A stretch of 64,000 nucleotides of DNA from an uncultured Gammaproteobacteria bacterium. Lineage in GTDB: Bacteria; Patescibacteriota; Patescibacteriia; PEXW01. The position numbers and the translations under genes are program-made. Shown one piece after another: positions 30,801-48,777 of this stretch. Position 1 is the stretch's first letter, and the number at the start of each line of letters is the position of its first letter. The DNA lies in contig CAZAMC010000003.1 of NCBI GenBank assembly GCA_964486505.1, positions 139,120 to 203,119 on the forward strand, given 5' to 3'. A model generated the notes under the pieces. That model worked only from the letters and a program-made list of their open reading frames with translations. It ran no database searches and was not told the DNA's origin.

Positions 30801-30850
30801 CCCTCCGGGTGCATTAGCTCGATGAACGAGCATGCGTTTTTACTAGTATT

Positions 30851-30887: not shown

Positions 30888-30908
30888 CTGATTGGCGATC
30901 CCGAATAC

Positions 30909-32910: not shown

Positions 32911-32953
32911 ACGCCCCACCTCACAGTGCTGGGCGTCTTGCTATACTAGGACT

Positions 32954-33208
32954 ATGGCAAAACTCCAACGCAAAGTTACGCTGCAGATCATTACGCTGCT
33001 CACCGGTGCGCTTGGCATGGTGGCGGCGCTCGCCTGGAATGAAGCGGTGAAAGCCCTGTTTGAAAAAATCTTCGGCGACGCCAGCAGCCTGGTCGCGAAG
33101 TTTACGTACGCGGTGGTGATTACCGCTATCGTCGTGTGGGTCACCACCCACTTGGCGAAGCTGCAGGATCAGTCGGACGAGGAGAAGAACCAGGACCGCA
33201 AGCCCTGA
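32954..33208 (+). CDS. Small two-TM membrane protein (84 aa), leaderless transcript
   Basis: Extended -10 TGcTATACT (32939-32947) then 6 nt then ATG; only the last 85 codons of the long track ORF 32465..33208 are protein-like. Confidence 0.5.
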   Translation: MAKLQRKVTLQIITLLTGALGMVAALAWNEAVKALFEKIFGDASSLVAKFTYAVVITAIVVWVTTHLAKLQDQSDEEKNQDRKP

Positions 33209-33630: not shown

Positions 33631-33719
33631 GGTCTGTAGGCTACCAGGTTGACGCGCCCTCGTCGAGGCGGTACCGTAGGCGCACAAACCCATAAATGCC
33701 CTTTGAGAAAGGAGGCTCC

Positions 33720-34922
33720 ATGTACGGAGTCCGCATTGCTGGATTGGGCACGGCCGTGCCTAACTGGCGCATTACAAACGCAATGATCGCGCAGCTCCTC
33801 CAGGATGAACGCGAACGCCTGCGGGTGTTGAAGGTTAAGGTTCCAGCCGATCAAGAAAAAGAGTTCGAGACGAATGATGAGTGGATCCAGTCGCGAACGG
33901 GCATTCGCCAACGCTACTTTTGCCCGCGGGATAACTCCGTGGCGACCAGTGACCTTGCCGTCGAAGCCGCTGGCAATGCCTGGACCGATGCTTACGGCGA
34001 AGCGCTGGATACCTTCCCCGAATTCATCATCATTGCCACGGTGAGTCCGGACCACTTCACCACCCCGCCGACCTCGGTCATAGTGCACCGGAAGTTGGGC
34101 GTGCCGAAAACCCAGGGTGGGCACGTGTGGCCCTGTGTCCTGGCTGACATCACGCTTGCGTGCACGAGCTTCATGGTGGCCTTGCAATACGGCTGCATGC
34201 TCATCGAAACCGGGCGGTGCCAGCGGGGCTTGGTCATTGGCGCGGACCGCATGAGTACCACGATGAGCTGGCAGCGGCGATCCCCCTTCGTCATCCTCGG
34301 TGACGGTGCAGGCGCGCTCGTCCTTGAGCGCACAACTGCGGAGGGATCCTTCATCCAGCCTAACCACTGGATTGTGGCCGGTGATGGTGGCAAGGACGGA
34401 GAAATGGAAAACCTCATTAAGAACTGGGCGGGCGGCTCAGCCCAACCGCTGCAGCCGGAGCACCTTCGTCCGCTCGTCGAAGCGCACCTCATGGCTATGG
34501 ACGGCAACCCCGTCTTCCAGACTGTGGGTCCGCTGGTTACGAAGACGGTCATCCCGGCAATTCTCGAACGCATTGAGCTCACGCTGGAAGACATCGACGT
34601 GCTCGTCCTCCACCAAGCCAACCAGCGGATTACCGACTTCGTGGCGAAGGGCTTACAGAAGTCCAATCCGAAAACGGACATCCGCATCGCCACGCTGGAC
34701 AATCCCGACGGCACATCGGTAGCCCCGAAACCGAACGGCGGGCACATCGTCCGGATATTCTGCAACATCGAACGGTACGGGAACATGACCTCCGCCAGTG
34801 TCCCGACCGCCCTCGCCGAAGCACGGGATGCTGGCGTTATTCAGCCGGGATCGAAAGTGATAATTTCGGCTTTCGGCGGCGGCTTGAGCTGGGCCGCAGC
34901 ATTCGCTACCTGGAGGGAGTAA
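33720..34922 (+). CDS. 3-oxoacyl-ACP synthase III (FabH-like KAS III) with N-terminal insertion
   Basis: RBS AAAGGAGG; EWIQSRTGIRQRY, the active-site Cys in LACTSF, HQANQRI, GNMTSASVP and FGGGLSW; a ~25-aa insertion after the first beta-strand relative to canonical FabH. Confidence 0.8.
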   Translation: MYGVRIAGLGTAVPNWRITNAMIAQLLQDERERLRVLKVKVPADQEKEFETNDEWIQSRTGIRQRYFCPRDNSVATSDLAVEAAGNAWTDAYGEALDTFPEFIIIATVSPDHFTTPPTSVIVHRKLGVPKTQGGHVWPCVLADITLACTSFMVALQYGCMLIETGRCQRGLVIGADRMSTTMSWQRRSPFVILGDGAGALVLERTTAEGSFIQPNHWIVAGDGGKDGEMENLIKNWAGGSAQPLQPEHLRPLVEAHLMAMDGNPVFQTVGPLVTKTVIPAILERIELTLEDIDVLVLHQANQRITDFVAKGLQKSNPKTDIRIATLDNPDGTSVAPKPNGGHIVRIFCNIERYGNMTSASVPTALAEARDAGVIQPGSKVIISAFGGGLSWAAAFATWRE

Positions 34923-35061
34923 GCACTTTGTATGAAACGCACCGTACGCCACCGGTGTGTTTTTCAATACGGCGGAAACAAAACCTGCATTGACAATGGG
35001 GACGGTTGTTGGTAATACACCTTCACCAAGAAATCAAAAACCCTTTGACAAGGAGGAATGC

Positions 35062-35979
35062 TTGAACGGTTTCAAAGCGGTGCTCAAGAGAGCCCAGGAG
35101 ATTGAGGCGGCGCGCTACGTACCAGTTCCAACGCAGACGTCGGTGGTGCTCCCCATCGTGGGCGCAGTCCGCATCACCGAAGAAAAGCTCGGTGGCGACG
35201 CGCGCTGGAGGGCGACAAATCCAGAGCAGGAAATATTCCTGCGGGACTACTACGGGTCAACGATTTCGCTGCTGGCAAGGGTGCCGGAGCTCGTATCGAG
35301 TGCCGAGGTACTCAAGGCTGCTGACCGGTATGAAGTGCGGGCGAAGAGCGTGCTGGATGTCACCGTCGAGTGGCCCGAGCTGGGTGATCAGACGGACATT
35401 GAGCACGCAATTACCAAGCAGCGCTTCGCGGGTGTTCGCATGAAGAGTGCGTACGTGACCTTCTTCCGCACTGCGGACCACCCGTACCCCGTAGCCTGTG
35501 TGAAGACGAAAACTGGTGACACTGTGTATATGGCTATGTGCCCAGAAGCACGGGGCCTGAAAGATCGGGAACTCGACCGGCTCATTGCCAAGTGCTTCTC
35601 CAGTGCCCAGCTTCGCCCCACATTTCGTGAATTCGGTGGCCTGCGCTTCCCCATGGTCAAGCACGAGCGCCTAGAGAACATCACCTGGCTCGTGGGCATG
35701 CGCGGCCAGGATGCCGAAGAGTGGCCCGCGGAAATCGTGGAGGCAACGCAGGAGACGAAGCTCCGTATGAACTGCAAAGGAGCACGCGTGCGCTCCGAGG
35801 TGCGACTCCGCACAGTGGTGTTACTCAGCGCCGGTCCCATGGACATGCCCCCGCCTGACCACACCATCGACCTCCCGTTCCTCATCTGGTTCACCCGACC
35901 GTCGCTCCCGGTCCCGTACGCCATTGCGCTCATTGGCGAAGCTGACTGGCGCGACCCCGGTGACCTCGAAAACATCTAG
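35062..35979 (+). CDS. Hypothetical protein (~305 aa)
   Basis: Frame is open from 34957; the preferred start is TTG at 35062 (AAGGAGG then 5 nt) downstream of a TTGACA-17-TAATAC promoter at 34990-35018. Alternative ATG starts are at 34957 and 34996. No recognised family. Confidence 0.5.
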   Translation: MNGFKAVLKRAQEIEAARYVPVPTQTSVVLPIVGAVRITEEKLGGDARWRATNPEQEIFLRDYYGSTISLLARVPELVSSAEVLKAADRYEVRAKSVLDVTVEWPELGDQTDIEHAITKQRFAGVRMKSAYVTFFRTADHPYPVACVKTKTGDTVYMAMCPEARGLKDRELDRLIAKCFSSAQLRPTFREFGGLRFPMVKHERLENITWLVGMRGQDAEEWPAEIVEATQETKLRMNCKGARVRSEVRLRTVVLLSAGPMDMPPPDHTIDLPFLIWFTRPSLPVPYAIALIGEADWRDPGDLENI

Positions 35980-35988
35980 CTCACTTGC

Positions 35989-36020
35989 AAAAGCCATCCA
36001 CGGTATCGTGGATGGCTTTT
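35989..36020. terminator. Bidirectional terminator between convergent genes
   Basis: AAAAGCCATCCACGgtatCGTGGATGGCTTTT. Confidence 0.55.
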
Positions 36021-36041
36021 CCTTACAATCGATATGTTGAA

Positions 36042-36959
36042 CTAGCCCGCTGACATGGCCAGAAACTTCTCTGCATCCAGCAGCGCCATCACACCGAAAC
36101 CCGCGGCTACCGAAGCCTGCCGGTAGCGGGGATCGTGCACGTCGCCGGCGGCAAAAACCCCCTCCACGTTTGTCTTGGTGAAGTCCTTCACCACAATGAA
36201 GCCGTGGCTATCAACCTCGAGCTGGTCTTTAAAAATATCAGTTGCGGGTTTGTGGCCAATGGCGAGGAACAGCCCTTGGCAAGCGTAGTCCCGCACCTCA
36301 CCCGTCTGCGCATCCTTCAGCTTCACCCCAGCTACCGCTTGCTCACCAAGCACATCAACAACCTCACTTTTCCACTGCACGGAAATTTTCGGATTTGCAA
36401 GAACACGATCCTGCATAATCTTGCTGGCGTTGAATGAATCTTTCCGATGGACAATTGTCACTTTTGTAGCAAACTTTGTAAGAAAATTTGCTTCTTCCAT
36501 TGCCGTGTCGCCGCCACCGACGATTACGACTTCCTTGCCCTTGAAGAAGAATCCGTCACACGTGGCGCACGCCGATACGCCAGCGCCCCGCAGGCGCTGC
36601 TCATTGGGTAAACCCAGCCACTTCGCCTGCGCGCCCGTGGCGACAATGACGGTCTGCGCTTGTAGCGCTTGATCACCCACCCACAGCCGAAAAGGCCGTT
36701 GGGAAAAATCGACCTTTGTAACGTTCCCATCAATGAACTGCGTACCAAAATGCGCCGCTTGATCGCGCAGCTTCTGCATGAGCTCTGGCCCCTTGATGCT
36801 CACGTAACCGGGGAAATTTTCTACGTCTGTCGTATCCATGAGCTGGCCGCCCGGCTTCATACCAGCAATGACTAGGGGCTGGAGCTCGGCCCGGGCACCG
36901 TAAATTGCCGCCGATAAACCCGCCGGACCAGAACCAATGATAATGAGTTTATGAGCCAT
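36042..36959 (-). CDS. trxB: Thioredoxin reductase (canonical, NADPH-dependent)
   Basis: IIIGSGPAGL...GVSACATCDGFFFKGKEVVIVGGGDTAMEEANFLTKFATKVTIVHRKD: the CATC redox motif and HRKD NADPH motif are both present. Start chosen at MAHKLIIIG. Confidence 0.9.
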   Translation of the reverse strand: MAHKLIIIGSGPAGLSAAIYGARAELQPLVIAGMKPGGQLMDTTDVENFPGYVSIKGPELMQKLRDQAAHFGTQFIDGNVTKVDFSQRPFRLWVGDQALQAQTVIVATGAQAKWLGLPNEQRLRGAGVSACATCDGFFFKGKEVVIVGGGDTAMEEANFLTKFATKVTIVHRKDSFNASKIMQDRVLANPKISVQWKSEVVDVLGEQAVAGVKLKDAQTGEVRDYACQGLFLAIGHKPATDIFKDQLEVDSHGFIVVKDFTKTNVEGVFAAGDVHDPRYRQASVAAGFGVMALLDAEKFLAMSAG

Positions 36960-37110
36960 AGGGGTGAGGAATGTGGAAGCCCCCGCATCATAGCAATATC
37001 CTTCGACCCATCGCAAGGAACTCGCGAGAGAGAAAATCTCGTCACGAGGAAGGACGAGGATTCCCGCGGCGCGGGATCCGTGTCCTGACAAAGTTACACC
37101 AGCCCCGATA

Positions 37111-39231
37111 TTATTGCTCCTCCCAGCTCAACGTCTCGTACTGCCCCGTGGTGGGGAAATCAGGCGGCGGGGCGTAACTCAAGTTCGCATCGAAGATAAG
37201 GTCACGCAAGCAGTACCCCGAATTGTTATACTGGCCACCCCCACAATCAAACAGATTGTAGCCGGTCCAGGCAAAACCGTACCGTTGGTTCGTTGCAATC
37301 GCTCCAAAGTTCGTTAGCTGGGCGCGCTTGCGGTACTCCTGGCACGTTGTCCCGCCATCTGGATTTTGGCTCTGCGTGCAGGTGTCGGTGGTCACGCAGG
37401 TATCACCGGACGTACAGGGCCCCGTACTCGTCGTCACGCAGGTGTCGGTGGTCACGCACGGCCCAACGTCAGGCGCGCTCGAATCACACGTCCCAAAACC
37501 GGTACAGTGCGAATTCTGGGAGCACCCCCGATTATGGTCACCGGTACACCAACCGTTGCACCGCGCGTTCGTCGTGCACGAACGAGTTGGATCATTCTGG
37601 CAGTAGTTGCGGCAGTTGGTGTTCGTCGTGCACGCGCGCGTGGGAAACGCGTTGCAGTAGTTAATGCAGTCCCCGGTGACCGTGCAGGCGCGGTCGGTGT
37701 CCGTGCTGCACTTGTTGTTGCACTGAGCGTCGGCCGTGCAGTTGAGCGTGGGCGTGGCTTGGCAGTAGTTTGTACAGTCGCCATTCACGGCACAGGATCG
37801 TGCGGGGTTGCCCACGCAAATGCCGCCGGTGGGGTAGAGTTGGAAGTTCGCATTGTTCGTCGAGGTCGTGAAGCCTGCCCCGTAGTACGGTCGGCCCACC
37901 CGCCCGTTCTGAGCAATGAGGGCGGCGTCAATGCGAATGTCATTCTCGCTAAAGTACCCAACGAGAATGTTGTCCTGCGCGATGAGCCCAATAACGTCGC
38001 CACCGCTCGTATCGCCAACCGGCGTATACGTGAGGTCCTCGTTCAAGTAGATGTTTGCGCGGCCCGATGCAAGCGGCTCACGAGCGGCCACGATAGTGAG
38101 CCGAGAATTATCAACAGCCCCGTCAACCCAGAGATCGTCTTCCACGAAGATAATGCCATTTGCGGGCAGGTCTACGCCCAGGGAAGAGCCGCCGTTGTAG
38201 GTAAAGGCCGCCTGGTCATTCGCCCGGGTGCCCACGGAGTGTGACGACTGCACGCAGGTTGCCCCCGACGAACACTGGCTACTCTGTGTACAGCTGGTGT
38301 TGAAATCATTTGAACAGTACCCAAAGTCACGCCACGTCCCGCTGGCGTTGTACTGGCAGCGTAGCTGCGCATTCACCACGCGCATGTCAACCTTGCCATC
38401 GGTACGGAGCGTGAGGTGGTACCCTTGCCCACCGGATGGGAGCAGACGTATGCCGCTGGCAATAGCTTTGGTCTGCAACGCCTGCAAGTCCGCGGTGATA
38501 TTGGCGAAATCTACGTAGTCAGCCTGTACCTGCCGGCCCGCTTCAAAAACGTCGGGGCGGCTAGCAATTGTGGCCGGCGGCGCGGCGGGTGGAATGGGGT
38601 CGGTGGGGGCTATGTGTGTATGTACGCCCAGCTCGTTGCTGCCGGTGTGGTCAGGATCGTCGTAGCTATACCGGTACGACGTGACGAGATTATGTGCCAA
38701 ACCGTCAAACCGGATGCCGCCATTGCTGTGTATAGGACCAAATACTTCGGTACCGACGCCGAAGCGCATATCGGCATTCGCCACGACCGCCCACTTGGTG
38801 AATGAGGGGATCCCTTGCCGCACAACCACGGTGCGTGCGCTCGCCGGCCGATTGGTGAGCTGTCCAGTGGAGGTAATGGTTACAACCGTTGACCCCGAAG
38901 GGGGTGGCGCGATATCCAGGGTAAACGTGCCAATCACATTCCCGGTGGTGTCACGGTACTGGTGCACGTAGGGTCCCGTCGTACCCGTGCCATCTTGGAA
39001 ATCATCGGGCACGTGGGCAAGGTGCCACCGGTAGTACTCTACGCCTGCTTCGGCAATCTGAAATGCGCGCTCGCGTTCTACCCGAAATTTACTCGCCGCG
39101 TTCTGGGTGATGATGAACTGGAGGGCCAGCATACCGAGTGTGACGAAAAGTCCGGTGATAACCAGAATGCTCACGAGCATCGAGCCGGAGGACTGATTCG
39201 TTCGCGGTGAATTGGCGCGCGCACGACTCAT
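37111..39231 (-). CDS. Large prepilin-like protein (GspK/minor-pilin-like N-terminus lacking Glu+5) with Cys-rich tandem repeats
   Basis: N-terminus ...QSSGSMLVSILVITGLFVTLGMLALQ is a class-III-signal-like hydrophobic segment. C-terminal region holds 7-8 repeats of C-x5-C-x3-C (...CTNYCQATPTLNCTADAQCNNKCSTDTDRACTVTGDCINYC...). 706 aa; last gene of a three-gene operon. Confidence 0.6.
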   Translation of the reverse strand: MSRARANSPRTNQSSGSMLVSILVITGLFVTLGMLALQFIITQNAASKFRVERERAFQIAEAGVEYYRWHLAHVPDDFQDGTGTTGPYVHQYRDTTGNVIGTFTLDIAPPPSGSTVVTITSTGQLTNRPASARTVVVRQGIPSFTKWAVVANADMRFGVGTEVFGPIHSNGGIRFDGLAHNLVTSYRYSYDDPDHTGSNELGVHTHIAPTDPIPPAAPPATIASRPDVFEAGRQVQADYVDFANITADLQALQTKAIASGIRLLPSGGQGYHLTLRTDGKVDMRVVNAQLRCQYNASGTWRDFGYCSNDFNTSCTQSSQCSSGATCVQSSHSVGTRANDQAAFTYNGGSSLGVDLPANGIIFVEDDLWVDGAVDNSRLTIVAAREPLASGRANIYLNEDLTYTPVGDTSGGDVIGLIAQDNILVGYFSENDIRIDAALIAQNGRVGRPYYGAGFTTSTNNANFQLYPTGGICVGNPARSCAVNGDCTNYCQATPTLNCTADAQCNNKCSTDTDRACTVTGDCINYCNAFPTRACTTNTNCRNYCQNDPTRSCTTNARCNGWCTGDHNRGCSQNSHCTGFGTCDSSAPDVGPCVTTDTCVTTSTGPCTSGDTCVTTDTCTQSQNPDGGTTCQEYRKRAQLTNFGAIATNQRYGFAWTGYNLFDCGGGQYNNSGYCLRDLIFDANLSYAPPPDFPTTGQYETLSWEEQ
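37366..37700. repeat. Direct DNA repeats encoding the Cys-rich modules
   Basis: cacgcaggtgtcggtggtcacgca occurs twice (about 37375 and 37436), with many related copies (gtcaccaccgacacctgcgtgac family). Confidence 0.5.
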
Positions 39232-39830
39232 AGGTTGTCTTTGAGGTTACGGAAGGCCACGCTGGTTTGCAAATCAATAGCGGCCGGGGTTTGGCTGGGG
39301 TCGGCATCAATACTGAGCAGGACGGTGACTAACCGAACGTCCTGCAGAGTTACTGGGAAGGTGAGCGCGGCTTCCGATCCGGTGTATGACGTATCGAAGT
39401 ACTGGAAGATGGGTGCCGCGCCATTGCGCACGCCAGTTACCAACGTGCTCACCGCTTCGCTACCCGCTGGGTACGACGCCGGTTGGCCAACGGGCTGGAT
39501 GAAGCCGAGCTTCAAATCAGAACCCTGGAGAAAGAAGCGAACCTGCTCCCGATCCGCATCTGCATCTGCATTCGCGTAGAAAGTTAATGACTGCGCGGCC
39601 GCCGCAGCAATGGGGTAGCTCCCGTTATTCGAGGGCTGCGCTTCCCGCACAAGCCGTGTAATGCGCGCCAAAGCCGTCCGGGCTTGCTCCTGCGCGTCAA
39701 CTTGCTCTCGATTCTGGTTCCACGTCCGCAAACCAAAAGCCGCAAAGGTGCCTAGCATCGTTGCCACAATTGCAAAGATGCTCGCGGTCACAATGACTTC
39801 AACTAGAGTGAATCCTGAGGGGCGATGCAT
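39228..39830 (-). CDS. Type IV pilin-like / pseudopilin (GspJ/PilV-like minor pilin)
   Basis: Prepilin-peptidase motif MHRPSG|FTLVEVIVTASIFAIVA (G-F-T-L-V-E with Glu at +5); 200 aa; 4-nt overlap with the upstream gene. Confidence 0.75.
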   Translation of the reverse strand: MHRPSGFTLVEVIVTASIFAIVATMLGTFAAFGLRTWNQNREQVDAQEQARTALARITRLVREAQPSNNGSYPIAAAAAQSLTFYANADADADREQVRFFLQGSDLKLGFIQPVGQPASYPAGSEAVSTLVTGVRNGAAPIFQYFDTSYTGSEAALTFPVTLQDVRLVTVLLSIDADPSQTPAAIDLQTSVAFRNLKDNL

Positions 39831-39833
39831 AGC

Positions 39834-41996
39834 TTAGGCCGGAACGAGTGAGAAGGTGTTCTGAACATGACCGCTCACATCCACATCAACCGTCAGAGGG
39901 GTGTAGCCGTCTTTCGTCAACGTCACGCTATAGGTTTGCGCCGAAAGACTGGGGAAGAATGCTTGGCCCGGGGGGGTGCACCCCGTGGTAAATCCAATAC
40001 GCACATCAGTAATACCGGGCGTCACCTTCTGGTCTGCCGTCTGCAAGAAGAGCTTGTACCGGATATAGCGCTTCGACTGAATACTGGCTGGCAATGCATC
40101 ACCGCTTGTGGTGAAGTACGTAGCGTTCGTGCCATCTGGCCCCACGAAATTCCACGTTGCATTATCGTCATTCGTTGCGAGCTGGAAACGGGCCGCCTCA
40201 GACCCTGCCTCGGCGGTCTGGCTTTGCGGTTCCCACGTGAGCCCAAAGAACGTGCTCGCCGTACCCGTGTCATAGGACGACGACGTGAGCGTCCCGTTGC
40301 TGGCGTACGTCTCTATAGTCAAGTCAATGGAGACATCCTGCACGACGGGCGTCACATTGGGGTCGGCGGTTTCGAGTTCAATACGGAAGCGCAGGACGTC
40401 ACCCGCCGAAACAAAGGCATGGGTCACATCGGGGGTAACTTCTTCAAACGTCGTGCCATCGGCCGACAGGTAGTAGCGAATAACCTGGCCATTCTCATTC
40501 CGCGCCGAACTCAGCGTGGCATCCACAATCTTCCCGGCGGGTGTGGGGATCTGCAAAGTCTGGGCTATCGCGCTAGCATCGTATAGCCCCGCGGTCTGAG
40601 ACAGGCGGAGCTCGCCCGCCCCGGTATCCCAGGTCGCCGTCGTAGAAGGATCACGGTTGGTAGTGGTATCAAAACTTTCGGATACCGCATCGGCACTCGA
40701 TGACTTCGTGAGCGTTACCTGGCCCGGCGTAGAGGTGACGTCAATTCCGCCGGTCTCGCTGTCGTACTTCGTCGCGTCTGTAAAATCTGCTTGGCCACTC
40801 CCGCCCGACCAGTTGGTTTGTGCCCATGTGCCCTGGCCGGTTGTCTTCGTCCCTACCCCGCTTACGTCAACGGTCGCCCCCGAGATGGGTGCGCCCGTGT
40901 TGGCATCCTTCACGCTCGCCAAAAGGGAGTTGGCCGAGTAGCTGGTCGTGAGGACCAAGGTAACTTGCGCATTCGTATCCGGCAGCACGTTCAAGCTCGC
41001 GGGCGGGATTATGCCAGCAATATTTCGCGTCAGCCCACCGAGCGTCAGGGCGTAGTTATCCCAAACCAAGCTACTCGCGGTCGCTTGGCCGCTACCATTG
41101 GTGGTGAAGCTCTGATCATACGCCAGCACCGGCGAGGGCGGTGGGTTGCCTTTCAACCGTTGGCCGCTGAGCTGGAAGTCAACTCCGGATTGCACTGCGC
41201 ACGTCTCGTTCACGGTGGTGAACGCCAAGCTGCTCAGGTGATCGATAGCAAAAGTGATGTCGAGCACGCCGCCGGCGGTAATCGAAAGGTTCGGGCGCAC
41301 GGGGTTGGGGAGTGCTACGGAAACTGCAAAGGTTTGATCTGTCGTGAATCCCGCTTTTGTTACGCGAACATTGTAGTTGTCTACGTCAGGCAGCAGGCTC
41401 AACAGTTGTAGCTTGCCGTTCACGTCCGTCTTCGAAGAAATGTCGACATCCGGATCCAGATTAGTATTCGTCACGTACACGTCTGCTTCCGAGACAGGCA
41501 GCCCCGACGCATCAATAACCGAAACCAGGAGCGAACCGGTATTCGATGGCGACTCCAGGCCCGCCGGCATAATAGATGTAGTGAGTTTAACCGCCTCGTC
41601 GCCTCCTGCCCACGTAACAGACACCTCGACCAGCTTGTAGTCCGTGGGCACCGTATCGGGTGGCGTGTCGGTGACCAGCTTATCGAACGTATCATCTACC
41701 CACTTCACACACGTATCCACCGTGAAGGTGACGTTGGAACGGACGGCGGTCATGGAGCGGGCGAATGGTCCGGTCACTTCGCACGTTGGCGCTTGCGTCC
41801 CGACGTCGCTAAACGGCGCATTGCGGAGCACCTCAATGCGCTCATTGGCTAGTGCGGTTGCGAGGACGCGAACCTTAGAACGGGCCAACTTCTCGGCGCT
41901 TAAGCTAAACATCCCTAACGCAAATGTCACCACGAGGCCAATAATTGCGACCCCAATGAGTGTCTCCACAAGTGTCGTGCCCTTCCTCCGTAGCAT
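39834..41996 (-). CDS. Giant prepilin-like protein (720 aa) with Ig-like/carboxypeptidase-regulatory-like extracellular domains
   Basis: N-terminus MLRRKG|TTLVETLIGVAIIGLVV is a type IV pilin class III signal with Glu+5, followed by a long S/T/V/D-rich beta domain. Confidence 0.7.
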   Translation of the reverse strand: MLRRKGTTLVETLIGVAIIGLVVTFALGMFSLSAEKLARSKVRVLATALANERIEVLRNAPFSDVGTQAPTCEVTGPFARSMTAVRSNVTFTVDTCVKWVDDTFDKLVTDTPPDTVPTDYKLVEVSVTWAGGDEAVKLTTSIMPAGLESPSNTGSLLVSVIDASGLPVSEADVYVTNTNLDPDVDISSKTDVNGKLQLLSLLPDVDNYNVRVTKAGFTTDQTFAVSVALPNPVRPNLSITAGGVLDITFAIDHLSSLAFTTVNETCAVQSGVDFQLSGQRLKGNPPPSPVLAYDQSFTTNGSGQATASSLVWDNYALTLGGLTRNIAGIIPPASLNVLPDTNAQVTLVLTTSYSANSLLASVKDANTGAPISGATVDVSGVGTKTTGQGTWAQTNWSGGSGQADFTDATKYDSETGGIDVTSTPGQVTLTKSSSADAVSESFDTTTNRDPSTTATWDTGAGELRLSQTAGLYDASAIAQTLQIPTPAGKIVDATLSSARNENGQVIRYYLSADGTTFEEVTPDVTHAFVSAGDVLRFRIELETADPNVTPVVQDVSIDLTIETYASNGTLTSSSYDTGTASTFFGLTWEPQSQTAEAGSEAARFQLATNDDNATWNFVGPDGTNATYFTTSGDALPASIQSKRYIRYKLFLQTADQKVTPGITDVRIGFTTGCTPPGQAFFPSLSAQTYSVTLTKDGYTPLTVDVDVSGHVQNTFSLVPA

Positions 41997-42069
41997 AGGT
42001 AGTAGTATAGCGTACTTCCACGGAGGGCAGTGCTATACTAAGGGGCGACTCGCTCTAACCCAAAGGCTT

Positions 42070-45000
42070 ATGACCCGTCGACACTACCTGAAGTTCACGA
42101 GTGGACTTCTCCTATTCACTGTGCTCTGGTCATTCCCGGGAATGATGAGCCCAGCGCGGGCTGTGACCAACGTCGTTGCTGGCACCGTTACTACCAGCGC
42201 CGGGGCGCCCATGGCGGGTGTCACCATGGAGCTGCACACGCCGGACGGTGTTTTCACGACAAATACCACGACCGCGGCGGATGGTACGTATCACTTTGAC
42301 AACGACCTTACGGTGGGTACGAACTACGTGGTGGAACCGCGGACGCCCGCAGGCTACAACCGCGTAAATACCAGCGCGAACAACAATAACTTTACCTACG
42401 ATGGGGTTTCTCGCTCAGGGGTGAACTTCCAGTTTGTTGCCACGAGCAAAACCATCAGCGGCCGCGTGACGGACACGAACGGCGTTGCCATTACCGATGC
42501 CGACATTAACATCACGCCCTACAACAACCCCAATGCCAGTAACGCCGCCGCCCGAACCGACGGCACCGGCGCCTACTCGGCCACGGTCGTGGGCGGCACG
42601 TGGTTTGCCCAGCCTGTGGTCAACCTCTCCGAATACACACAGCGCTGGATTAGCGAGACGCCTCCACAGCGCATCGACTTTGCGAACGACGCTACTGCCG
42701 AAACGGCAACCCTCAACTTCCAGGTAACCCCCGCCACTGGGAAGGTAACCGTAACCTTGCTCAACAGCGACGGGAGCAAGCTCACGACGAGCAACTTCGT
42801 AGCCGACATTAACTTCCGCCGGGCCGATGGCGTAGGCACCATGCGCAAAGTGCAAGCGGCCACCTCCACTGTGAGCGTGTACCTCACCCCGGGCATCTAC
42901 ACCATCTCGGCGTTCCACAACGATCTTCGCGGTAAGTCATTCGATCCCGCCGCAACGACCTTTGTAATGACAGAGAACGGGAACGTAGACCTCGGGACAG
43001 TGCAAGCCCAAGTCGATAGCGCCCACCTGACAGGCAAGGTGACGAATACCAGTGGCCAAGCCCTACCGAATGTGCACATCCAGGCCATCCGCGAAGGCGG
43101 ACAGGAGCGGCCGAGTGGGAATACTGACCCGAATGGAAACTTTGATCTCACGGTTGGTGCAGGCACCTGGGTGATTGGCCTGGATACGAACGATACCTCG
43201 CACACCCTGGTTGCTCCAGTGAGCGCAACGGTGACGAACGGGCAAACCACGACGGGCCTCAATTTGCAGGTCAAGGACCTCGACCGAACGGTTTCCGGAC
43301 GGGTGCTGAACGCGAACGGCGCGGTGGTCACTGACTTCGTGGGCAGCGTGTACGTCCGAACACTATCGAACAGCGCCCGGGTGAGCGCCCCGGTCGTTGA
43401 TGGCACGTTTAGTGTAAAGTTCGCATCCAAAGAGATAACGGGCAGCAAAATTGTCGTTGGAACCCAAGCCGCCCCCGGCACGGCCTATGCGGGCGGCAAT
43501 GAAAAGCAGGTAACGTCGGGAAATACTGTGGCTACCGATCTTACCCTCCGAGCATACGATGCCACGCTCACGGGTACACTCCGCTTGCCGGATGCCACGG
43601 TAGTCACCAATGCGGGTTCGGACCTACAGGTCGTGGCTGTAGATGCCAGCGGTAACTTTGCCAGCACCACAGTTGGGGCTGATGGCTCGTACTCTCTGCC
43701 CCTTGCCGCCGGCACTTGGCTCTTCGACTACGACATTGAAGACCCTGAGGATACCAGTGGGTTGCTCAACCGCCCCTCGGGCCAGAGCAGCGTCACCATC
43801 AAGGCCGGCCAAACGCTCACGCGCAATCTCACGGTTCGGCTCGGCACGAATACCATCACCGGCACAGTGCGCGACTCCAGTGGTGCTGCCGTTGGGAGCG
43901 TAAAAGTGACCATCGACAACCGCCCCTCGCTGGAGAGCAATGCGGCCACAAATCCAAACGACATTGTCACGCAGACCGTGGAGACGGATGTGAACGGCGT
44001 GTACACCACAAAAGTCCCGAATGGTACGTACCTCATCACTGTGGGCGAGACCCCAGCAGTTGCCGACACCCAGATCCAACCCGATGGCAAGGCGGTAAAA
44101 GTGAGCGGCGGCTCAACCACGACCGTGAACCTCACCTTTGAGGCAAGCAACGCCGTAGTGAAAGGCAAGGTCCTCCTCAACGGCAAGGGCGAGGGTGGCG
44201 GTACCATTACCGCGTACTCCGCCGATGGCGCGCAGGCAACGGCCACCGTGAACAGCTCGGGCAACTACACCCTGAACCTAAACAAGAACGAGAAGTGGAC
44301 CCTGGTCGCCACTGACCTCAAGGGTCAGCGCTTGGTGGCAAGCGACGCTGCCGAAATTACGCCGAAAGCAAACACGACGACCAAGAACCTCACGGTAAAA
44401 GACACGGGACTTGCTGTTCCCGGCCCGGTCACCAAGACCGGCAACGCCGATGATAGCGTGAGCGTGAGCCTGGCCGATGGCACGAACGTCACGGTTCCGC
44501 CCTTCGCCCTCGATATTTCGGGCACTGTGGAAGTAACCGTTACCCCCACCATCGATATTGACCCCACGACGCTGGATCGCCCGGCTTCTCTCGCCTATGA
44601 AGTAAGCGCATTCGATGCAACAGGCCGCGAGGTGAAAGCGCTCAACACTCCGGCGACGATAACCTTGCCGTACAAAGAGAGCACGGTGGTGAATAACGGG
44701 TTGCGGGAGAAGGCGCTGGCGACCAAGTACTGGGACTCGCAAACCGAATCCTGGTCCACCGATGGCGCCGCCGGACTTGTGAATACCACCAAGAACACGG
44801 CGACACTCACTACGACTCACCTTTCAAAATTCTCGGTTACCGGCACGGCCCGGGCGACACCAAAACTGACGGCGAGCAAGTTGGTGAGCCGCAATAGCAC
44901 CAGCCTGGTCATCGAAGTAAGCGGCAGCAACATGAAGGGCAAAGCCACAGCAAAACTTGGCACGGTGAAAGCCACAAAAGTAGAGGTGCGCAGTAGCAGC

Positions 45001-45153
45001 GTTGCCCGCCTCACCTTCCCGACCAAGTCGGTGAAGAACGGCACGTACGACCTCACCTACACCAATGCCGATGGCCGCTCGACAATCAAACGGACTACGG
45101 TAAGTACCGGCCGCGTGCTTGGCGAGAGCGTGGCGCGGATTATTCCCCGATAA
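42070..45153 (+). CDS. Large secreted multi-domain protein (repeated CarboxypepD_reg/Cna-B-like Ig-fold modules, C-terminal IPT-like domain)
   Basis: Start chosen at MTRRHYLKFTSGLLLFTVLWSFPGMMSPARA (signal peptide). Recurring ...G.V.D..G.....A.V........TDA.G.Y.....G.Y modules; 1027 aa; divergent from the pilin-like operon. Confidence 0.7.
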   Translation: MTRRHYLKFTSGLLLFTVLWSFPGMMSPARAVTNVVAGTVTTSAGAPMAGVTMELHTPDGVFTTNTTTAADGTYHFDNDLTVGTNYVVEPRTPAGYNRVNTSANNNNFTYDGVSRSGVNFQFVATSKTISGRVTDTNGVAITDADINITPYNNPNASNAAARTDGTGAYSATVVGGTWFAQPVVNLSEYTQRWISETPPQRIDFANDATAETATLNFQVTPATGKVTVTLLNSDGSKLTTSNFVADINFRRADGVGTMRKVQAATSTVSVYLTPGIYTISAFHNDLRGKSFDPAATTFVMTENGNVDLGTVQAQVDSAHLTGKVTNTSGQALPNVHIQAIREGGQERPSGNTDPNGNFDLTVGAGTWVIGLDTNDTSHTLVAPVSATVTNGQTTTGLNLQVKDLDRTVSGRVLNANGAVVTDFVGSVYVRTLSNSARVSAPVVDGTFSVKFASKEITGSKIVVGTQAAPGTAYAGGNEKQVTSGNTVATDLTLRAYDATLTGTLRLPDATVVTNAGSDLQVVAVDASGNFASTTVGADGSYSLPLAAGTWLFDYDIEDPEDTSGLLNRPSGQSSVTIKAGQTLTRNLTVRLGTNTITGTVRDSSGAAVGSVKVTIDNRPSLESNAATNPNDIVTQTVETDVNGVYTTKVPNGTYLITVGETPAVADTQIQPDGKAVKVSGGSTTTVNLTFEASNAVVKGKVLLNGKGEGGGTITAYSADGAQATATVNSSGNYTLNLNKNEKWTLVATDLKGQRLVASDAAEITPKANTTTKNLTVKDTGLAVPGPVTKTGNADDSVSVSLADGTNVTVPPFALDISGTVEVTVTPTIDIDPTTLDRPASLAYEVSAFDATGREVKALNTPATITLPYKESTVVNNGLREKALATKYWDSQTESWSTDGAAGLVNTTKNTATLTTTHLSKFSVTGTARATPKLTASKLVSRNSTSLVIEVSGSNMKGKATAKLGTVKATKVEVRSSSVARLTFPTKSVKNGTYDLTYTNADGRSTIKRTTVSTGRVLGESVARIIPR

Positions 45154-45170: not shown

Positions 45171-45198
45171 AAAAGCCTCGCTTCAGCGAGGCTTTTTT
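45171..45198. terminator. Bidirectional terminator between convergent genes
   Basis: AAAAGCCTCGCttcaGCGAGGCTTTTTT. Confidence 0.55.
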
Positions 45199-45202
45199 GT
45201 AC

Positions 45203-45816: not shown

Positions 45817-46983
45817 CTAGTCGTCGTCTTCGACGCTGGCGTCCTGGGCTTCTTTAAAGAATACTCGTTCTGCGGTGAGCTTCTTCGTGTTGGACGTGTA
45901 CGTGCCCAGAACCTTCAGCTTGTCGCCCACAGTAATGTCGGCGAAGGTTCGCAAGCCGTTCTCATCCACGTACTTTGTCGCAGCGGTCACGATGACGGTA
46001 ATGTCACCGTAGCTCTTCTCCTTGGTGCGGAGTGTAAACGACGTTCCGTCGGTACCCAAGGCGAGAACCGTCCCCTGGACATCACCCCGCTTGATCTTCA
46101 AGCTGGAATTGCGTACGGACTTCGCGTTCATCGTGTTCGTGTCTGTAAGCGTGCCCCGAGCCTCTACCTTATCGCCGACCAAAAACTCTTCAATGGTCGC
46201 CGTCTTCAAGTAATGACGGTAGAGCTTCGTGCTGGAGGTCACGTTGACAGTCCAAGACGTTGTGGGCGTGGAGCTATTCTCCGAGGTACTGGCCTTCACC
46301 CCTTTCGAGCTCTTTCCCTTCACGGTAACGGTGAGAGTCGCGGGCAAACCGCCGTCCGTCAGGGTGATGGCACTCACGGTACCGCTAATCGTGCGCAGGT
46401 CAACGATGACCCGATCGGCATCAATGCGGCTGTCGGCTTTACGCCAAATCCCAATGACCTTCATGCGCTCACCATTCGTCAAGCTGGCACAGCCAATCTT
46501 TTCGCCCCCGCGAGTGAACTTGGTCGCAGTGGTGAAATACACGGTCTGCTGCGCCCGTTCGTCCGGCTTAAACGTGAATGAGTTGCTATCGCAATTCTTC
46601 TCAAGGAGCTTGCCCTTAAAGGTGCCCCCAATTCGCTGGATTGATACGTTCTTAATCCGCGTGGCATTTATGGTATTCGCGACGTCATTTGAGGGTGTGC
46701 CGCGAACTTCTACGCTGTCCCCAACCAAAAACTCACCGAGGTCGGATGTACCATTGTACTTCCGCACAACTGTGGTCGAACTCGTTATCTCTACTGTGTA
46801 GATTGTCGCCCCAGACTTCACTGTCATGGTGGCAGGAATGGTCGTGCCACTCATCGCTTGGATGGTGCCAACCACCCGCAAGGTGCTGCTACTAGTGTCC
46901 TCCGCTCGAACGGGCACGGCCGCTCCAAGCATAGCGGCGAGGGCGATAGCGCTCACGCCCGCTGTGAGAATGCGTTTTCGCAT
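45817..46983 (-). CDS. Secreted repeat protein (three related beta-rich modules)
   Basis: Signal peptide MRKRILTAGVSAIALAAMLGAAVPVRA; internal repeats ...EFLVGDSVEVRGT..., ...EFLVGDKVEARGT..., ...ITVGDKLKVLGT... Confidence 0.6.
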   Translation of the reverse strand: MRKRILTAGVSAIALAAMLGAAVPVRAEDTSSSTLRVVGTIQAMSGTTIPATMTVKSGATIYTVEITSSTTVVRKYNGTSDLGEFLVGDSVEVRGTPSNDVANTINATRIKNVSIQRIGGTFKGKLLEKNCDSNSFTFKPDERAQQTVYFTTATKFTRGGEKIGCASLTNGERMKVIGIWRKADSRIDADRVIVDLRTISGTVSAITLTDGGLPATLTVTVKGKSSKGVKASTSENSSTPTTSWTVNVTSSTKLYRHYLKTATIEEFLVGDKVEARGTLTDTNTMNAKSVRNSSLKIKRGDVQGTVLALGTDGTSFTLRTKEKSYGDITVIVTAATKYVDENGLRTFADITVGDKLKVLGTYTSNTKKLTAERVFFKEAQDASVEDDD

Positions 46984-47121
46984 AGTGCGTACATGGGTTA
47001 GGGAACGAGTGTTGCGAAGTATAGAATACGGACCAGCGTATAGGCAACCTTGCCGGACGCTATAACCTAGTACACTCGAACACAAAAAAACTTTCACGTC
47101 TACCGTGCCAATGTGCGAAAA

Positions 47122-48777
47122 CTAGGAAATTTCCTCGCGCTTTTCCTTAAGGTAACTAAACCACTCGTCAACGGCCTCCACGAACATCTTGAACGGTGCT
47201 TCGATAATGAAATCCAGGAAGAAAACAATGAAATTCACTTTCGGCACCTTCTTGGAGAACCACTGCCCTAAACGCAGGATCGGCAGGGAGAATGACGAGA
47301 GGAGAAGCAAAAATAAGTTCTCCCGACGATCGCGAAGGGTGAGCTCTTGAGCGAGACCCCGCACGCGCGTGCCAAACAGTGAGATAACCGAGAGGAAGAA
47401 AATAAAGACGACGATGGAAAGCCAGTTGAACTGCAAGGCGGTGAGGCCCCAGACAATGGCGCCAAAGGTGACAACGAAAGTCGCCAGGTAGAACAGGTAA
47501 AAGAAGAACGAGCGCAGTTTGCCCCGGGGCCGGGGTCGGAGCCGAGCGCCGAAGATTTCTCGCGGCGTGGTGGGACTCACAATTTCCTGCACAGCTTTTA
47601 CCACGAGCGCCGTATTCTCCTTACCAGGCAAGCGGGCGGAGAGAGCAATGGTGAACATGAGCACCGGGTGGAAAATGCTGTTGATGTAGATTGGCATGAG
47701 CGCCCGCTCACGCAGCACGAAGACTTCGTACGGCAACTCTATCGCCAGCGCCAGCATCATCTTGGTGATGAAGATGTAGATAATGCTCCGAACCGAGGTG
47801 CGGCGTAGGCGCGTCCGGGCCGTCTTCAGCTTGCTCTTCATGGCCTCCTCAACCGCTTCCTGCAGGGTAGCGGGATTCTGCAGGATGGCGTTGGCTTCCT
47901 GGGCGCCTTTCTCGCGAACTATGTCAGCCAAAATGAGAAACGGGATTGTGTACCGACGACAGATGACGAGCAGGCGTTCGGAGAGAGGATGGTTAATGCG
48001 CTCTTCAATGGACTCAACAAGCTTTGGAAATTTCTCTCGCACCTGTTCGGTAACGGCGTGATTGGGGTGCTCCCACTCGGGGAAGGCCCACTTGAAAAGG
48101 TGGTAACGGAGCACAGCGTCATCGCTCTTTATGAGCGCTCGGTGAATTGCCAAGTACACGAGTACATCTTGCTCCTGGCCAGCCGGCACGCTTTCGGGAA
48201 GTACGAGATTTGAACGAATCGTAGCGTACATGACTTCCACCAGGGCATCTTGCCGCGTACTGGGTGACAGCCGTTCTTCTAAATCGGCAGAAGCCACGCT
48301 GAGAATCCAACGAATATGCCGGCGGTCTTCCGGGTTCGTGCGCCGAAGCTGAAGGTGGTCCAGGAGCGCCAGGTACCGGTCCACGTAATTTTGGACGACG
48401 GCCACAAGTGTCTCAGGCAAAGCATTGTTGGGCAGGTACCGGCCACGAATGAGTTCGTAGATGAGCAGCCGAGCATCGACCATGGAACGATTCTCAACCA
48501 AGTACCGCCGCCGGAGAATGCGCTCAATGGCGTTCCGCCGCAACAGGTGCTCCTCATTGAACTCAATACTGTTGCGCAGCTTCTCGTAGAAGTACGCCAT
48601 CTTGCCAATGACTTCGTTGAGCTTAATGCGGGGCAAGCCTGGCGGCGCCTCCAAGTTCGGCAAAGGCTCTGCATAGCTCTGGAGGAGCTTCAGGGCGCTT
48701 TTCGGGAATGGGGAGCCTTCGGTCATATGGGTATCTCTATTGTAGCCGAAACCTACCACGTCGACGATGGATGACAA
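47122..48777 (-). CDS. Hypothetical protein, N-terminal ~330-aa helical domain + C-terminal multi-TM domain (551 aa)
   Basis: Long ORF with good coding composition but no RBS; 5-6 TM helices in the last 220 aa; no family recognised. Confidence 0.5.
   Translation of the reverse strand: MSSIVDVVGFGYNRDTHMTEGSPFPKSALKLLQSYAEPLPNLEAPPGLPRIKLNEVIGKMAYFYEKLRNSIEFNEEHLLRRNAIERILRRRYLVENRSMVDARLLIYELIRGRYLPNNALPETLVAVVQNYVDRYLALLDHLQLRRTNPEDRRHIRWILSVASADLEERLSPSTRQDALVEVMYATIRSNLVLPESVPAGQEQDVLVYLAIHRALIKSDDAVLRYHLFKWAFPEWEHPNHAVTEQVREKFPKLVESIEERINHPLSERLLVICRRYTIPFLILADIVREKGAQEANAILQNPATLQEAVEEAMKSKLKTARTRLRRTSVRSIIYIFITKMMLALAIELPYEVFVLRERALMPIYINSIFHPVLMFTIALSARLPGKENTALVVKAVQEIVSPTTPREIFGARLRPRPRGKLRSFFFYLFYLATFVVTFGAIVWGLTALQFNWLSIVVFIFFLSVISLFGTRVRGLAQELTLRDRRENLFLLLLSSFSLPILRLGQWFSKKVPKVNFIVFFLDFIIEAPFKMFVEAVDEWFSYLKEKREEIS

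Follow-up and report, generated by a model that had tools for sequence, protein, structure and literature searches.

A predicted self-cleaving surface protein with a GAIN-B/ZU5-like domain in the Patescibacteria group

We consider it somewhat probable that the protein described here is an exported, self-cleaving surface protein, in which a predicted cleavage would leave a large, acidic ectodomain non-covalently associated with a small basic piece, the latter predicted to provide the anchoring. The signal peptide, the eight modules of the acidic region, the GAIN-B/ZU5 β-sandwich and the basic TIG domain with its tail all rest on tool results. The gene lies in a window of 64,000 nucleotides (the whole stretch of DNA that was analysed) from an uncultured bacterium of the Patescibacteria (CPR), and its features are as follows.

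42070..45153, + strand: complete target coding sequence, 1027 aa plus stop codon
42070..42162, + strand: predicted signal peptide of the Sec type, aa 1-31
42166..44415, + strand: eight transthyretin-like (CarboxypepD_reg / Cna-B-like) β-sandwich modules
42736..43008, + strand: module D3, a conservation hot spot
44416..44850, + strand: GAIN subdomain-B / ZU5-like β-sandwich, aa 783-927, ~145 aa, cysteine-free, putative cis-autoproteolytic domain
44818..44826, + strand: His917-Leu918-Ser919 (CAC CTT TCA, codons checked), predicted scissile site L918/S919
44860..45105, + strand: IPT/TIG-fold domain, aa 931-1012, body of the predicted basic C-terminal fragment
45106..45150, + strand: short basic tail, aa 1013-1027, TGRVLGESVARIIPR, predicted to be disordered (pLDDT <50), conservation 0.32
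45180..45202, + strand: weak terminator-like hairpin with a T-run, 27 nt past the stop codon, 5-bp stem; suggestive, as such sites are no commoner than chance

Translation from the ATG at 42070 gives a protein that begins with MTRRHYLKFTSGLLLFTVLWSFPGMMSPARA, and an NCBI protein (P0001) is 100% identical to it. The first-pass annotation had placed this 1027-aa protein at 41997-45153; its length and end were correct, but position 41997 is the first base of the upstream spacer and does not belong to the coding sequence. It had also called a longer reading frame misleading, and rightly so: this ORF (41644..45153, + strand, 1169 aa) starts with GTG, and its first ~140 codons overlay the minus-strand gene at 39834..41996. 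About 45 full-length orthologs of 1016-1045 aa share 48-83% identity with the target, and the source labels of those that are named read Patescibacteria group, Kerfeldbacteria or just 'bacterium'. The gene is present in one copy in every locus retrieved.

A signal peptide had been proposed from the sequence, and the alignment of orthologs agrees with it. The n-region (MTRRHYLK) is followed by the h-region FTSGLLLFTVLWSF and the c-region PGMMSPARA, with a predicted cut before VT; the basic n-region, the hydrophobic core and the A-x-A site were kept in 43 of 43 orthologs. The pattern with small residues at -3 and -1, identified by pattern reading rather than by a trained predictor, is present and conserved. 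The only hydrophobic segment of the protein spans aa ~9-25, with none after aa 25, and aa 4-20 were modelled by AlphaFold2 as a low-confidence helix. A Tat signal (S/T-R-R-x-F-L-K) was also considered and rejected: the target has TRRHYLK, but many orthologs carry a single R or K. This lack of conservation of the RR pair argues against Tat, and no NCBIfam TAT-signal match was found in the target.

The mature protein, which contains no cysteine, starts with the eight modules (D1, aa 33-124; D2, 126-221; D3, 223-313; D4, 317-403; D5, 405-495; D6, 497-589; D7, 593-690; D8, 694-782). At least eight iterated Ig-fold modules of the CarboxypepD_reg kind had been claimed, and three approaches support such modules. 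Pfam CarboxypepD_reg (PF13620) matched with an E-value of 3e-23 (82.3 bits, gathering score 32.3), with four stretches above threshold; a profile built from module 7 recovered eight copies in consistent register (aa 35-776), the remaining four being found solely in this way; and the AlphaFold2 model (pLDDT 83) contains eight β-sandwiches. Each is a seven-strand β-sandwich of about 80-95 aa, as in CarboxypepD_reg domains. Pairwise identity among the modules is 14-30%, and the pattern G.V.D..G...G.Y is common to all of them. No tandem repeat was found in the gene at the DNA level; the module copies are therefore ancient and were not created by the assembly. The modules make up most of the strongly acidic region.

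D1 (aa 43-100) is the only module that exceeds the gathering score of Pfam SpaA (PF17802; 31.4 vs 23.1 bits), and fold matches of the target among Gram-positive MSCRAMM and pilin proteins of the Cna-B, SpaA and SdrD kind include the TIE protein, BcpA, SpaA and SdrD. D1 contains no lysine, so that a Cna-B-type Lys-Asn isopeptide is impossible in this module. The SdrD_B Pfam match stays under the cut-off and, unlike these proteins, the target has neither an LPXTG signal nor a sortase signal. Some orthologs carry the NCBI name 'SpaA isopeptide-forming pilin-related'; like 'carboxypeptidase regulatory-like' and 'hypothetical', which are also used for this family, it is uninformative or misleading. 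The transthyretin-like domains of NOMO (BOS complex) and carboxypeptidase D are likewise among the closest known systems; NOMO differs in being eukaryotic, residing in the ER lumen, having its TM anchor at the C-terminus and lacking an autoproteolytic domain.

It is extremely improbable that the array belongs to a bacterial α2-macroglobulin-like protease trap or a complement-like protein. Foldseek matched A2ML1, C5 and ECAM with E-values of 6e-11 to 7e-10 over about 960-1300 aligned columns, but the TM-scores of 0.06-0.09 indicate that only the repeated β-sandwiches match. No Pfam A2M domains were found in the target, and a CxEQ thioester is impossible in a protein with no cysteine at all, which effectively rules out this identity.

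Conservation within the array is concentrated in D3, where 27 of 91 columns (30%) are invariant, compared with 2-13% in each other domain. Its motifs are LLNSDG, RR.DG.GT.RKV and H.DL.GKSF, and more distant paralogues with FG-GAP tails (P0059-P0062) retain the D3 motif. The D3 sequence had no match in Pfam or the PDB. Judged from this sequence conservation, D3 is the best candidate for a ligand- or partner-binding site of the ectodomain. As first described, the target was an ordinary iterated Ig-fold surface protein; its most informative part, the GAIN/ZU5-like domain together with an acidic/basic split at the H-L-S site, was absent from that reading.

The region that had been overlooked, aa 783-927, is GAIN-B/ZU5-like; it belongs neither to the module array, as a ninth copy, nor to the TIG domain. 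It has the β-sandwich fold of GAIN subdomain B and the ZU5-type β-sandwich fold, and GAIN is its best match in the PDB, ahead of all else. The predicted scissile junction within TTTHLSKFSVTGTAR, with THL before it and SKFSV after it, lies in the turn between the last two β-strands (910-917 and 920-927; DSSP on the AlphaFold2 model), where GAIN domains have their H-L-T/S triad; active-site geometry was assessed from predicted secondary structure alone. Across 43 orthologs, the His, the L/F, the T/S and F921 were each found in 43, and Trp895 is conserved as well. The same three positions are H, F/L and T/S in 145 of 145 other bacterial family members, the His being the most conserved column. Residue 919 is Ser in the target and Thr in most orthologs. 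An H-F-[T/S] variant, which we take to be the PIDD-type motif, occurs in 15 of the 43 orthologs and in most distant relatives.

Sequence comparisons point in the same direction. Pfam GPS reached 19.3 bits on the target (gathering score 22.5; E 0.0017) and matched 18 of 25 orthologs, in all cases below the gathering score, while Pfam ZU5 (PF00791) matched only one of the 25, at a non-significant E-value of 0.11. The GPS of ADGRF1 aligned in register (...C-THLTSFSI vs ...TTHLTKFSV). A profile derived from CPR sequences retrieved a catfish protein with GPS and 7tm_2 domains at an E-value of 1e-29; this score sums six near-identical repeats, so that the evidence per repeat is modest.

The likeness to the GAIN domains of adhesion GPCRs and polycystin-1 (PMC3321182) extends to a triad that aligns in register, in the turn leading into the last β-strand, and to the conserved Trp (W895). 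As in adhesion GPCRs, the domain has a long ectodomain of many domains on one side and, on the other, a module presumed to keep the protein at the cell; a cleaved, non-covalently joined heterodimer is predicted. Unlike adhesion-GPCR GAIN, it is bacterial, measures ~145 aa instead of about 320 and lacks the helical subdomain A: aa 783-927 contain one 6-residue helix (870-875), and D8 lies directly before. No GPS disulfides are possible without cysteines, a TIG domain follows in place of the first transmembrane helix, the Pfam GPS score is below cut-off and cleavage is a prediction. ZU5 domains (UNC5B, ankyrin; autoproteolytic in PIDD and in the FIIND of NLRP1/CARD8) resemble it in not requiring a helical subdomain, but they are cytoplasmic and followed by UPA and death-fold domains, whereas the target domain is extracellular.

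The missing subdomain A and disulfides and the sub-threshold GPS score would also suit a domain that is a mere structural spacer or binding module within a single chain, as is the case for GAIN domains that do not cleave and for the ankyrin and UNC5B ZU5 domains. Several GAIN domains of animals stay uncleaved although their consensus is intact, and the whole GAIN domain was needed for cleavage in adhesion GPCRs (Araç et al. 2012, PMC3321182). We nevertheless regard a mere spacer as fairly unlikely. The H-[F/L]-[T/S] triad comprises the sole universally invariant residues of the wider family, and a merely structural turn is not expected to fix a His and a hydroxyl residue. Moreover, a charge split coincides with the H-L-S site in each of the 43 orthologs: the pI is 4.4-5.1 for the 885-897 aa on its N-terminal side and 10.5-12.0 for the ~100-119 aa on its C-terminal side.

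Self-cleavage is the preferred reading. After export and folding, His917 would activate the hydroxyl of Ser919, which would attack the carbonyl of Leu918; the resulting N-to-O acyl shift would be followed by hydrolysis. This chemistry is modelled on adhesion-GPCR GAIN and on the ZU5 domains of PIDD, NLRP1 and CARD8. The expected products are an acidic fragment of ~92 kDa (aa 32-918, pI 4.8) and a basic one of 11.5 kDa (aa 919-1027, pI 11.3). They would stay joined through the β-sandwich, whose last strand is made by SKFSVTGT, the start of the small fragment. The basic TIG piece would keep the complex at the cell envelope, which is negatively charged, and the non-covalent joint could be a maturation step, a release point for ectodomain shedding, or both.

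The C-terminal IPT/TIG-like domain proposed in the first-pass annotation is supported by its Ig-like E-set fold, which matches solved IPT/TIG domains; the Pfam scores are below threshold for both TIG (PF01833; 13.6 bits vs a gathering score of 20.9) and TIG_SUH (15 vs 24). By analogy with proteins of the wider family, which bear LPXTG, SLH or peptidoglycan-binding modules at the same position, this C-terminal piece may serve as the anchor. To our knowledge, wall binding is not an established function of TIG domains. The tails differ between orthologs, and this lack of conservation counts against anchoring.

An acidic eight-domain array with a basic C-terminal anchor could also be the main envelope or S-layer-like lattice protein of the cell, which we consider unlikely; such a role is compatible with self-cleavage and not exclusive of it. 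Several observations suit a lattice: the single copy per locus, a near-constant length N-terminal of the site over 48-83% identity, a body without cysteines, and orthologs beside housekeeping genes in two loci (L003 and L006). A pTM of 0.78 over all 1027 aa hints that the domains are packed in a fixed way. S-layer proteins with several Ig domains exist, with SlaA/B, Sap and EA1 among the fold matches of the target, and S-layer proteins have been predicted in Patescibacteria in a preprint. Against this, no S-layer anchoring module (SLH, CWB2 and the like) was matched by Pfam in the target.

A further reading concerns the neighbouring genes, which are transcribed divergently.

41997..42069, between the two genes: divergent spacer between the pilin-like gene (- strand) and the target (+ strand), read directly from the sequence
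37111..41996, - strand: divergent pilin-like operon (context), with matches to Pfam N_methyl and to NCBIfam prepilin and pseudopilin models
39834-41996, - strand: 720-aa prepilin-like protein with a CarboxypepD_reg domain
39228-39830, - strand: 200-aa prepilin
37111-39231, - strand: 706-aa Cys-rich protein

The first-pass annotation had described a 73-nt divergent intergenic region, which is the length we measured, and had taken it to suggest co-regulation with that operon, the target being a candidate pilus-associated adhesin or S-layer-like surface array protein. The spacer contains an extended -10-like box for the target (TGcTATACT, 42031-42039), an AGTATA box, which the minus strand reads as TATACT, a few nt ahead of the ATG of the pilin-like gene, and a conserved CTAACCCAAAG leader immediately before the target ATG. 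These elements are kept across six aligned orthologous spacers. A consensus promoter scan did not report the two -10-like boxes; lying back to back, they suggest separate putative promoters.

The operon adjoins the target in the window and in L004, L005, L008, L009, L010 and L011, that is, in relatives with ~64% or more full-length identity, where measured; the divergent arrangement with a spacer of 73-99 nt was found in the window, L004, L008, L010 and L011. The operon is absent next to the gene in L001/L002 (63% identity), where a flotillin-like gene lies upstream, and in L003, L006, L007, L012, L013 and L014 (about 48-55%). In L003 and L006, the ortholog directly follows RNase Y-YmdB-HU, and in L004 a block including the pilin operon separates HU from the target gene, which suggests that the adjacency is derived.

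The proposal of a co-regulated, pilus-associated adhesin is weakly supported, the operon being adjacent in one subclade and missing in about half of the loci. That the target is an adhesin co-expressed with the minor-pilin-like operon and shown on, or working with, a type IV pilus appears quite improbable to us. The short spacer is conserved in several loci, the first pilin-like gene likewise has a CarboxypepD_reg domain, and a T2SSE-type ATPase is encoded 10 kb away (30909-31985). However, the target has no prepilin leader, no Pfam or NCBIfam match to a PilY1/PilC-type domain and no detectable sequence similarity to its pilin-like neighbour, and the spacer has two separate -10-like boxes. In addition, the gene is divergent from the minor-pilin operon rather than inside it, as a PilY1/PilC-like tip adhesin would be, and the synteny is limited to a subclade.

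Beyond the orthologs, the putative autoproteolytic domain has a wider CPR/Chloroflexota family of at least 1693 clusters at 50% identity, for which we found no covering Pfam model; the named members among 20 matches checked come from Patescibacteria and Chloroflexota. Members of this family carry the domain 100-450 aa before their C-terminus, and after it come LPXTG signals, Fn3 and PG_binding_1, SLH (present in the distant members P0116 and P0123), FG-GAP or TIG. ZU5, GPS and Nup98 autopeptidases were united by Zhang, Aravind et al. 2012 (PMC3482391), who noted them in large bacterial surface proteins. Bacterial ZU5/GPS-type domains were thus already predicted computationally in 2012, and the target is a variant of that kind, sharing the proposed superfamily and the autoprocessing of large secreted surface proteins, which is a prediction in both cases. 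The polymorphic-toxin versions in that study are N-terminal, lie before RHS repeats and have a C-terminal CxH thiol motif, whereas the target domain is near the C-terminus, before an anchor-like module; it has no Cys, a near-invariant T915 two residues before His917, and a His with a hydroxyl nucleophile.

Enzyme-independent cleavage via a Ser/Thr N-O acyl shift is known from C. difficile CwpV (PMC3256870) and the SEAL domain of RsgI (PMC10556640); in RsgI, the two pieces are joined through a shared β-sheet and one is cell-anchored. The target would follow the same cleave-and-hold logic with unrelated folds and motifs; the SEAL study stated that GAIN is not similar to SEA/SEAL domains.

In the adhesion-GPCR field, GAIN/GPS autoproteolysis is regarded as having arisen in eukaryotes. 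Araç et al. 2012 (PMC3321182) traced GAIN from Tetrahymena to mammals, and there is no mention of prokaryotes or of ZU5 in the accessible part of a 2026 consortium review. We tentatively raise the possibility, on balance rather doubtful, that the domain belongs to a large Pfam-less bacterial family of GAIN-like self-cleaving modules between long ectodomains and wall or membrane anchors (LPXTG, SLH, PG-binding, TIG). These would be counterparts, possibly relatives or forerunners, of animal adhesion-GPCR GAIN and would provide a non-covalent, possibly force-sensitive envelope joint; in this CPR clade, the target would be the main two-piece S-layer-like envelope protein. A bacterial family with a universal triad just before cell-anchoring modules would allow a direct test of the origin of the GAIN module, and in its small, cysteine-free, easily expressed versions both the cleavage chemistry and the mechanics of the 'tethered last strand' could be modelled. 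The target itself is a conserved candidate major envelope component of this clade, and its exact predicted fragments can be searched for in existing metaproteomes.

The target gene encodes a predicted secreted protein and is separated by a short spacer from a divergent neighbour:

42070..45153, plus strand: target CDS, ATG at 42070, 1027 aa plus stop, begins MTRRHYLKFTSGLLLFTVLWSFPGMMSPARA
41997..42069: divergent spacer of 73 nt

The ORF list also contains a longer frame with a GTG start (41644..45153, plus strand, 1169 codons), the first ~140 codons of which overlap the minus-strand gene 39834..41996. The first-pass annotation's 1027-aa protein, 73-nt spacer and misleading longer ORF were confirmed, but the range it assigned to the gene took in the spacer. 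An identical protein is present at NCBI, as are about 45 full-length orthologs (1016-1045 aa, 48-83% identity), and those with a named source come from the Patescibacteria group, Candidatus Kerfeldbacteria or just a 'bacterium'. In the GTDB species collection, the family was found in only seven species representatives, all of them MAGs. Three of the seven (orthologous loci L009, L013 and L014, with third-party annotation) bear the record titles 'uncultured Gammaproteobacteria' or 'Candidatus Saccharibacteria'; these labels are probably wrong, as the gene content is that of Patescibacteria-group MAGs.

The only hydrophobic stretch in the whole protein lies at the N-terminus, and the layout of a basic n-region, a hydrophobic core and A-x-A directly before module 1 is kept in 43/43 aligned orthologs. 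We read this N-terminus as a Sec signal. Tat export was considered because the target carries a twin-arginine-like TRRHYLK, but the RR pair varies among orthologs, and Sec was therefore preferred. Pfam CarboxypepD_reg matched the target in four stretches (E 3e-23), Pfam SpaA matched module 1 (D1), and a profile built from module 7 recovered eight in-register copies from aa 35 to 776. An AlphaFold2 model based on the 43-sequence alignment likewise contains eight β-sandwiches (mean pLDDT 83, pTM 0.78). The iterated ~90-aa Ig-fold modules proposed from the sequence were borne out, and a signal peptide is probable. The modules share 14-30% identity and all have the pattern described earlier. No DNA tandem repeats were found across them, which together with the low identity rules out a recent repeat expansion; the modules are old, individually conserved domains and not a freshly expanded adhesin repeat. 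Two further candidates were rejected: Cna-B/SpaA isopeptide chemistry for D1, which has no Lys, and an α2-macroglobulin/complement-like identity, which was dismissed despite good Foldseek E-values because TM-scores stayed below 0.1 and the protein contains no Cys.

One module stands out as a conservation hot spot:

42736-43008 (aa 223-313), plus strand: module D3

Within D3, 27 of 91 columns (30%) of the ortholog alignment are invariant, compared to 2-13% in other parts of the protein. Its charged motifs, RR.DG.GT.RKV and H.DL.GKSF, are also kept in the more distant FG-GAP-tailed paralogues P0059-P0062. The D3 sequence had no match in Pfam or PDB. We regard this module as a candidate binding site of the ectodomain.

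The key element of the protein, a GAIN-B/ZU5-like domain (aa 783-927), was missed by the first-pass annotation, even though the architecture it described was right. When the C-terminal 257 aa were scanned, Pfam GPS (GPCR proteolysis site) matched weakly at YWDSQTESWSTDGAAGLVNTTKNTATLTTTHLSKFSV (E 0.004), and a PDB profile search gave weak matches to ADGRF1 at the same place. The ortholog profile aligned in register with the ADGRF1 GPS (...NVATLTTTHLTKFSV against ...DIVTCQCTHLTSFSI). Individually, 18/25 orthologs matched Pfam GPS, every score being below the gathering score. His917, Leu/Phe918, Thr/Ser919, Phe921, Trp895 and Asn909 are invariant in 43/43 orthologs. The domain resembles the GAIN domains of CELSR1, BAI3, GPR126, LPHN3, GPR56, GPR97 and GPR110 and the FIIND of CARD8 and NLRP1. 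In both structure models, the second-to-last strand is predicted to end at the His, with Leu-Ser in the turn before the last strand. The scissile bond of GAIN domains is located at the position that Leu-Ser takes in these models (Araç et al. 2012, PMC3321182). No further GAIN-like domains were found in the 64-kb window. About half of the orthologs have a C-x5-C pair at the start of the domain (aa ~790-800, e.g., TKSCPADQTCSV); cysteines are entirely lacking from the window protein and from the orthologs closest to it (43-ortholog alignment A1).

A computed cut at Leu918|Ser919 yields a part of 887 aa with a pI of 4.8 and a part of 109 aa with a pI of 11.3. This split holds for all 43 orthologs, with N-terminal parts of 885-897 aa (pI 4.4-5.1) and C-terminal parts of 95-119 aa (pI 10.5-12.0). 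Domain order, fold assignments, the conserved triad with its position and the charge split are the part of the mechanism that the tools demonstrate. In the mechanism that we propose, the protein would be exported by Sec and then undergo cis-autoproteolysis, in which Ser/Thr919, assisted by the His, would attack the Leu918 carbonyl and so break the chain. As the new N-terminus would itself form the final strand of the sandwich, the two pieces would stay joined as a non-covalent heterodimer. Given its charge and the known anchors at the same position in relatives, the basic TIG fragment would attach to the anionic envelope.

The neighbouring genes were examined with respect to the pilus link and the co-regulation proposed earlier. 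The divergent operon includes a 200-aa prepilin as its second gene, and its first and last genes are:

39834-41996, minus strand: 720-aa prepilin-like protein with a CarboxypepD_reg domain, first gene
37111-39231, minus strand: 706-aa Cys-rich protein, last gene

The 720-aa protein combines a prepilin-type leader (MLRRKG|TTLVE) with a large body in which the CarboxypepD_reg domain lies; its orthologs range from 321 to 728 aa (L004, L005, L008, L010, L011). The 706-aa protein has a PilX-like hydrophobic N-terminus followed by some eight consecutive Cys-rich repeats of the form C-x5-C-x2-[Y/K/W]-C (e.g., CTNYC, CNNKC, CINYC, CRNYC, CNGWC), and no match was found for it in Pfam or NCBIfam. The divergent arrangement recurs at six other loci, L004 (83% identity), L005 (66%), L008, L009, L010 and L011. 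It is absent from L001/L002 (63%), where a flotillin-like gene lies upstream, and from L003, L006, L007, L012, L013 and L014 (about 48-55% identity). The spacer alignment revealed two TATACT-like boxes on opposite strands, which we read as separate promoters of the target and the pilin operon, and paralogy between the target and its pilin-like neighbour was rejected (BLASTP E 0.22). We consider the pilus link weak; the two units may be co-regulated in this subclade, but this does not extend to the family as a whole. In the spacers of the window, L004 and L008-L011, the AGTATA box (TATACT on the minus strand) lies only ~8-14 nt from the ATG of the pilin-like gene, suggesting that its transcript is leaderless or has a very short leader. 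The same spacers keep a CTAACCCAAA(G) leader before the target ATG, without an obvious Shine-Dalgarno.

In L003 and L006, RNase Y-YmdB-HU is located directly upstream of the target gene. In the window, about 12 kb (region 26951-37091 examined) part RNase Y from the target, and the genes for a T2SSE ATPase, DUF5654, a FabH-like protein and a thioredoxin-reductase-like (TrxB-like) protein as well as the pilin operon lie in between. The genes concerned upstream and downstream are:

26951-28507: RNase Y
30909-31985: T2SSE ATPase
45817-47097, minus strand: DUF5666-repeat secreted protein, 426 aa, downstream of the target
47122-48777, minus strand: multi-pass membrane protein, 551 aa, downstream of the target

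With this block between RNase Y and the target, the pilin adjacency looks derived, and the gene order suggests an insertion specific to the window's subclade. The 551-aa membrane protein had no match in Pfam. In L001, L004 and L005, genes that correspond to both in size and orientation, and to the first also in Pfam family, recur on the downstream side of the target, with additional genes in between.

Among known systems, the target is most like a self-cleaving GAIN or ZU5 domain that joins an ectodomain to an anchor. It has the subdomain B fold and the cleavage triad of a strict GAIN domain, but not subdomain A, the two disulfides, an above-threshold Pfam GPS match or a following transmembrane helix; likewise, it has the ZU5 fold but no Pfam ZU5 match. 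It is best assigned to the ZU5/GPS superfamily (Zhang et al. 2012, PMC3482391), although neither the CxH thiol motif nor the N-terminal placement in toxins described there applies to the target. Bacterial ZU5/GPS autopeptidases have already been proposed. Prokaryotes and ZU5 are both absent from the available portion of a 2026 review by the adhesion-GPCR consortium, and our literature search found no paper linking 'GAIN domain' with CPR, Patescibacteria or Chloroflexi. Two bacterial cases, the autoproteolysis of CwpV (PMC3256870) and the SEAL domain of RsgI (PMC10556640), are functionally similar to the proposed cleavage but unrelated.

A profile of aa 783-930 was searched against 1.84 billion representative proteins and gave 1693 matches at E ≤ 1e-3, 544 of them at E ≤ 1e-10. 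The best 150 of the 1693 are mostly large secreted proteins (0.5-3 thousand residues), with the domain usually 100-450 residues before the C-terminus. When 145 copies of the domain from beyond the target's own family were compared, His was the most conserved column (145/145), and Phe/Leu and Thr/Ser were likewise present in 145/145. In members of this wider family, the domain is followed by modules for cell anchoring or wall binding: LPXTG signals (P0067, P0072, P0100), Fn3 plus PG_binding_1 (P0076 and others), SLH (P0116, P0123), FG-GAP repeats (P0059-62 and others) and terminal TIG domains (P0063, P0083, P0090). The matches include a catfish protein (P0064) that carries a 7tm_2 domain besides five Pfam GPS motifs; its E-value, 1e-29, is summed over six near-identical repeats, and each repeat by itself gives modest evidence. 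Named members belong to Patescibacteria (Magasanikbacteria, CPR2, Kerfeldbacteria) and Chloroflexota, and their annotations read hypothetical or 'carboxypeptidase regulatory-like'; none of six bacterial members checked has a Pfam model covering the domain. Eight members (P0081, P0140, P0146, P0152, P0155, P0161, P0191 and P0192) end 13-30 aa past the domain and share a C-terminal x-[V/I/M/L]-Y/F-L-P-[L/I/V/T], possibly a signal for sorting or anchoring that has so far gone unrecognised; P0081, the one checked for its source, is from Chloroflexota. What makes this domain family notable is that it is large and without a Pfam model, yet bears a very clear conservation signature, and that the predictions are sharp and cheap.
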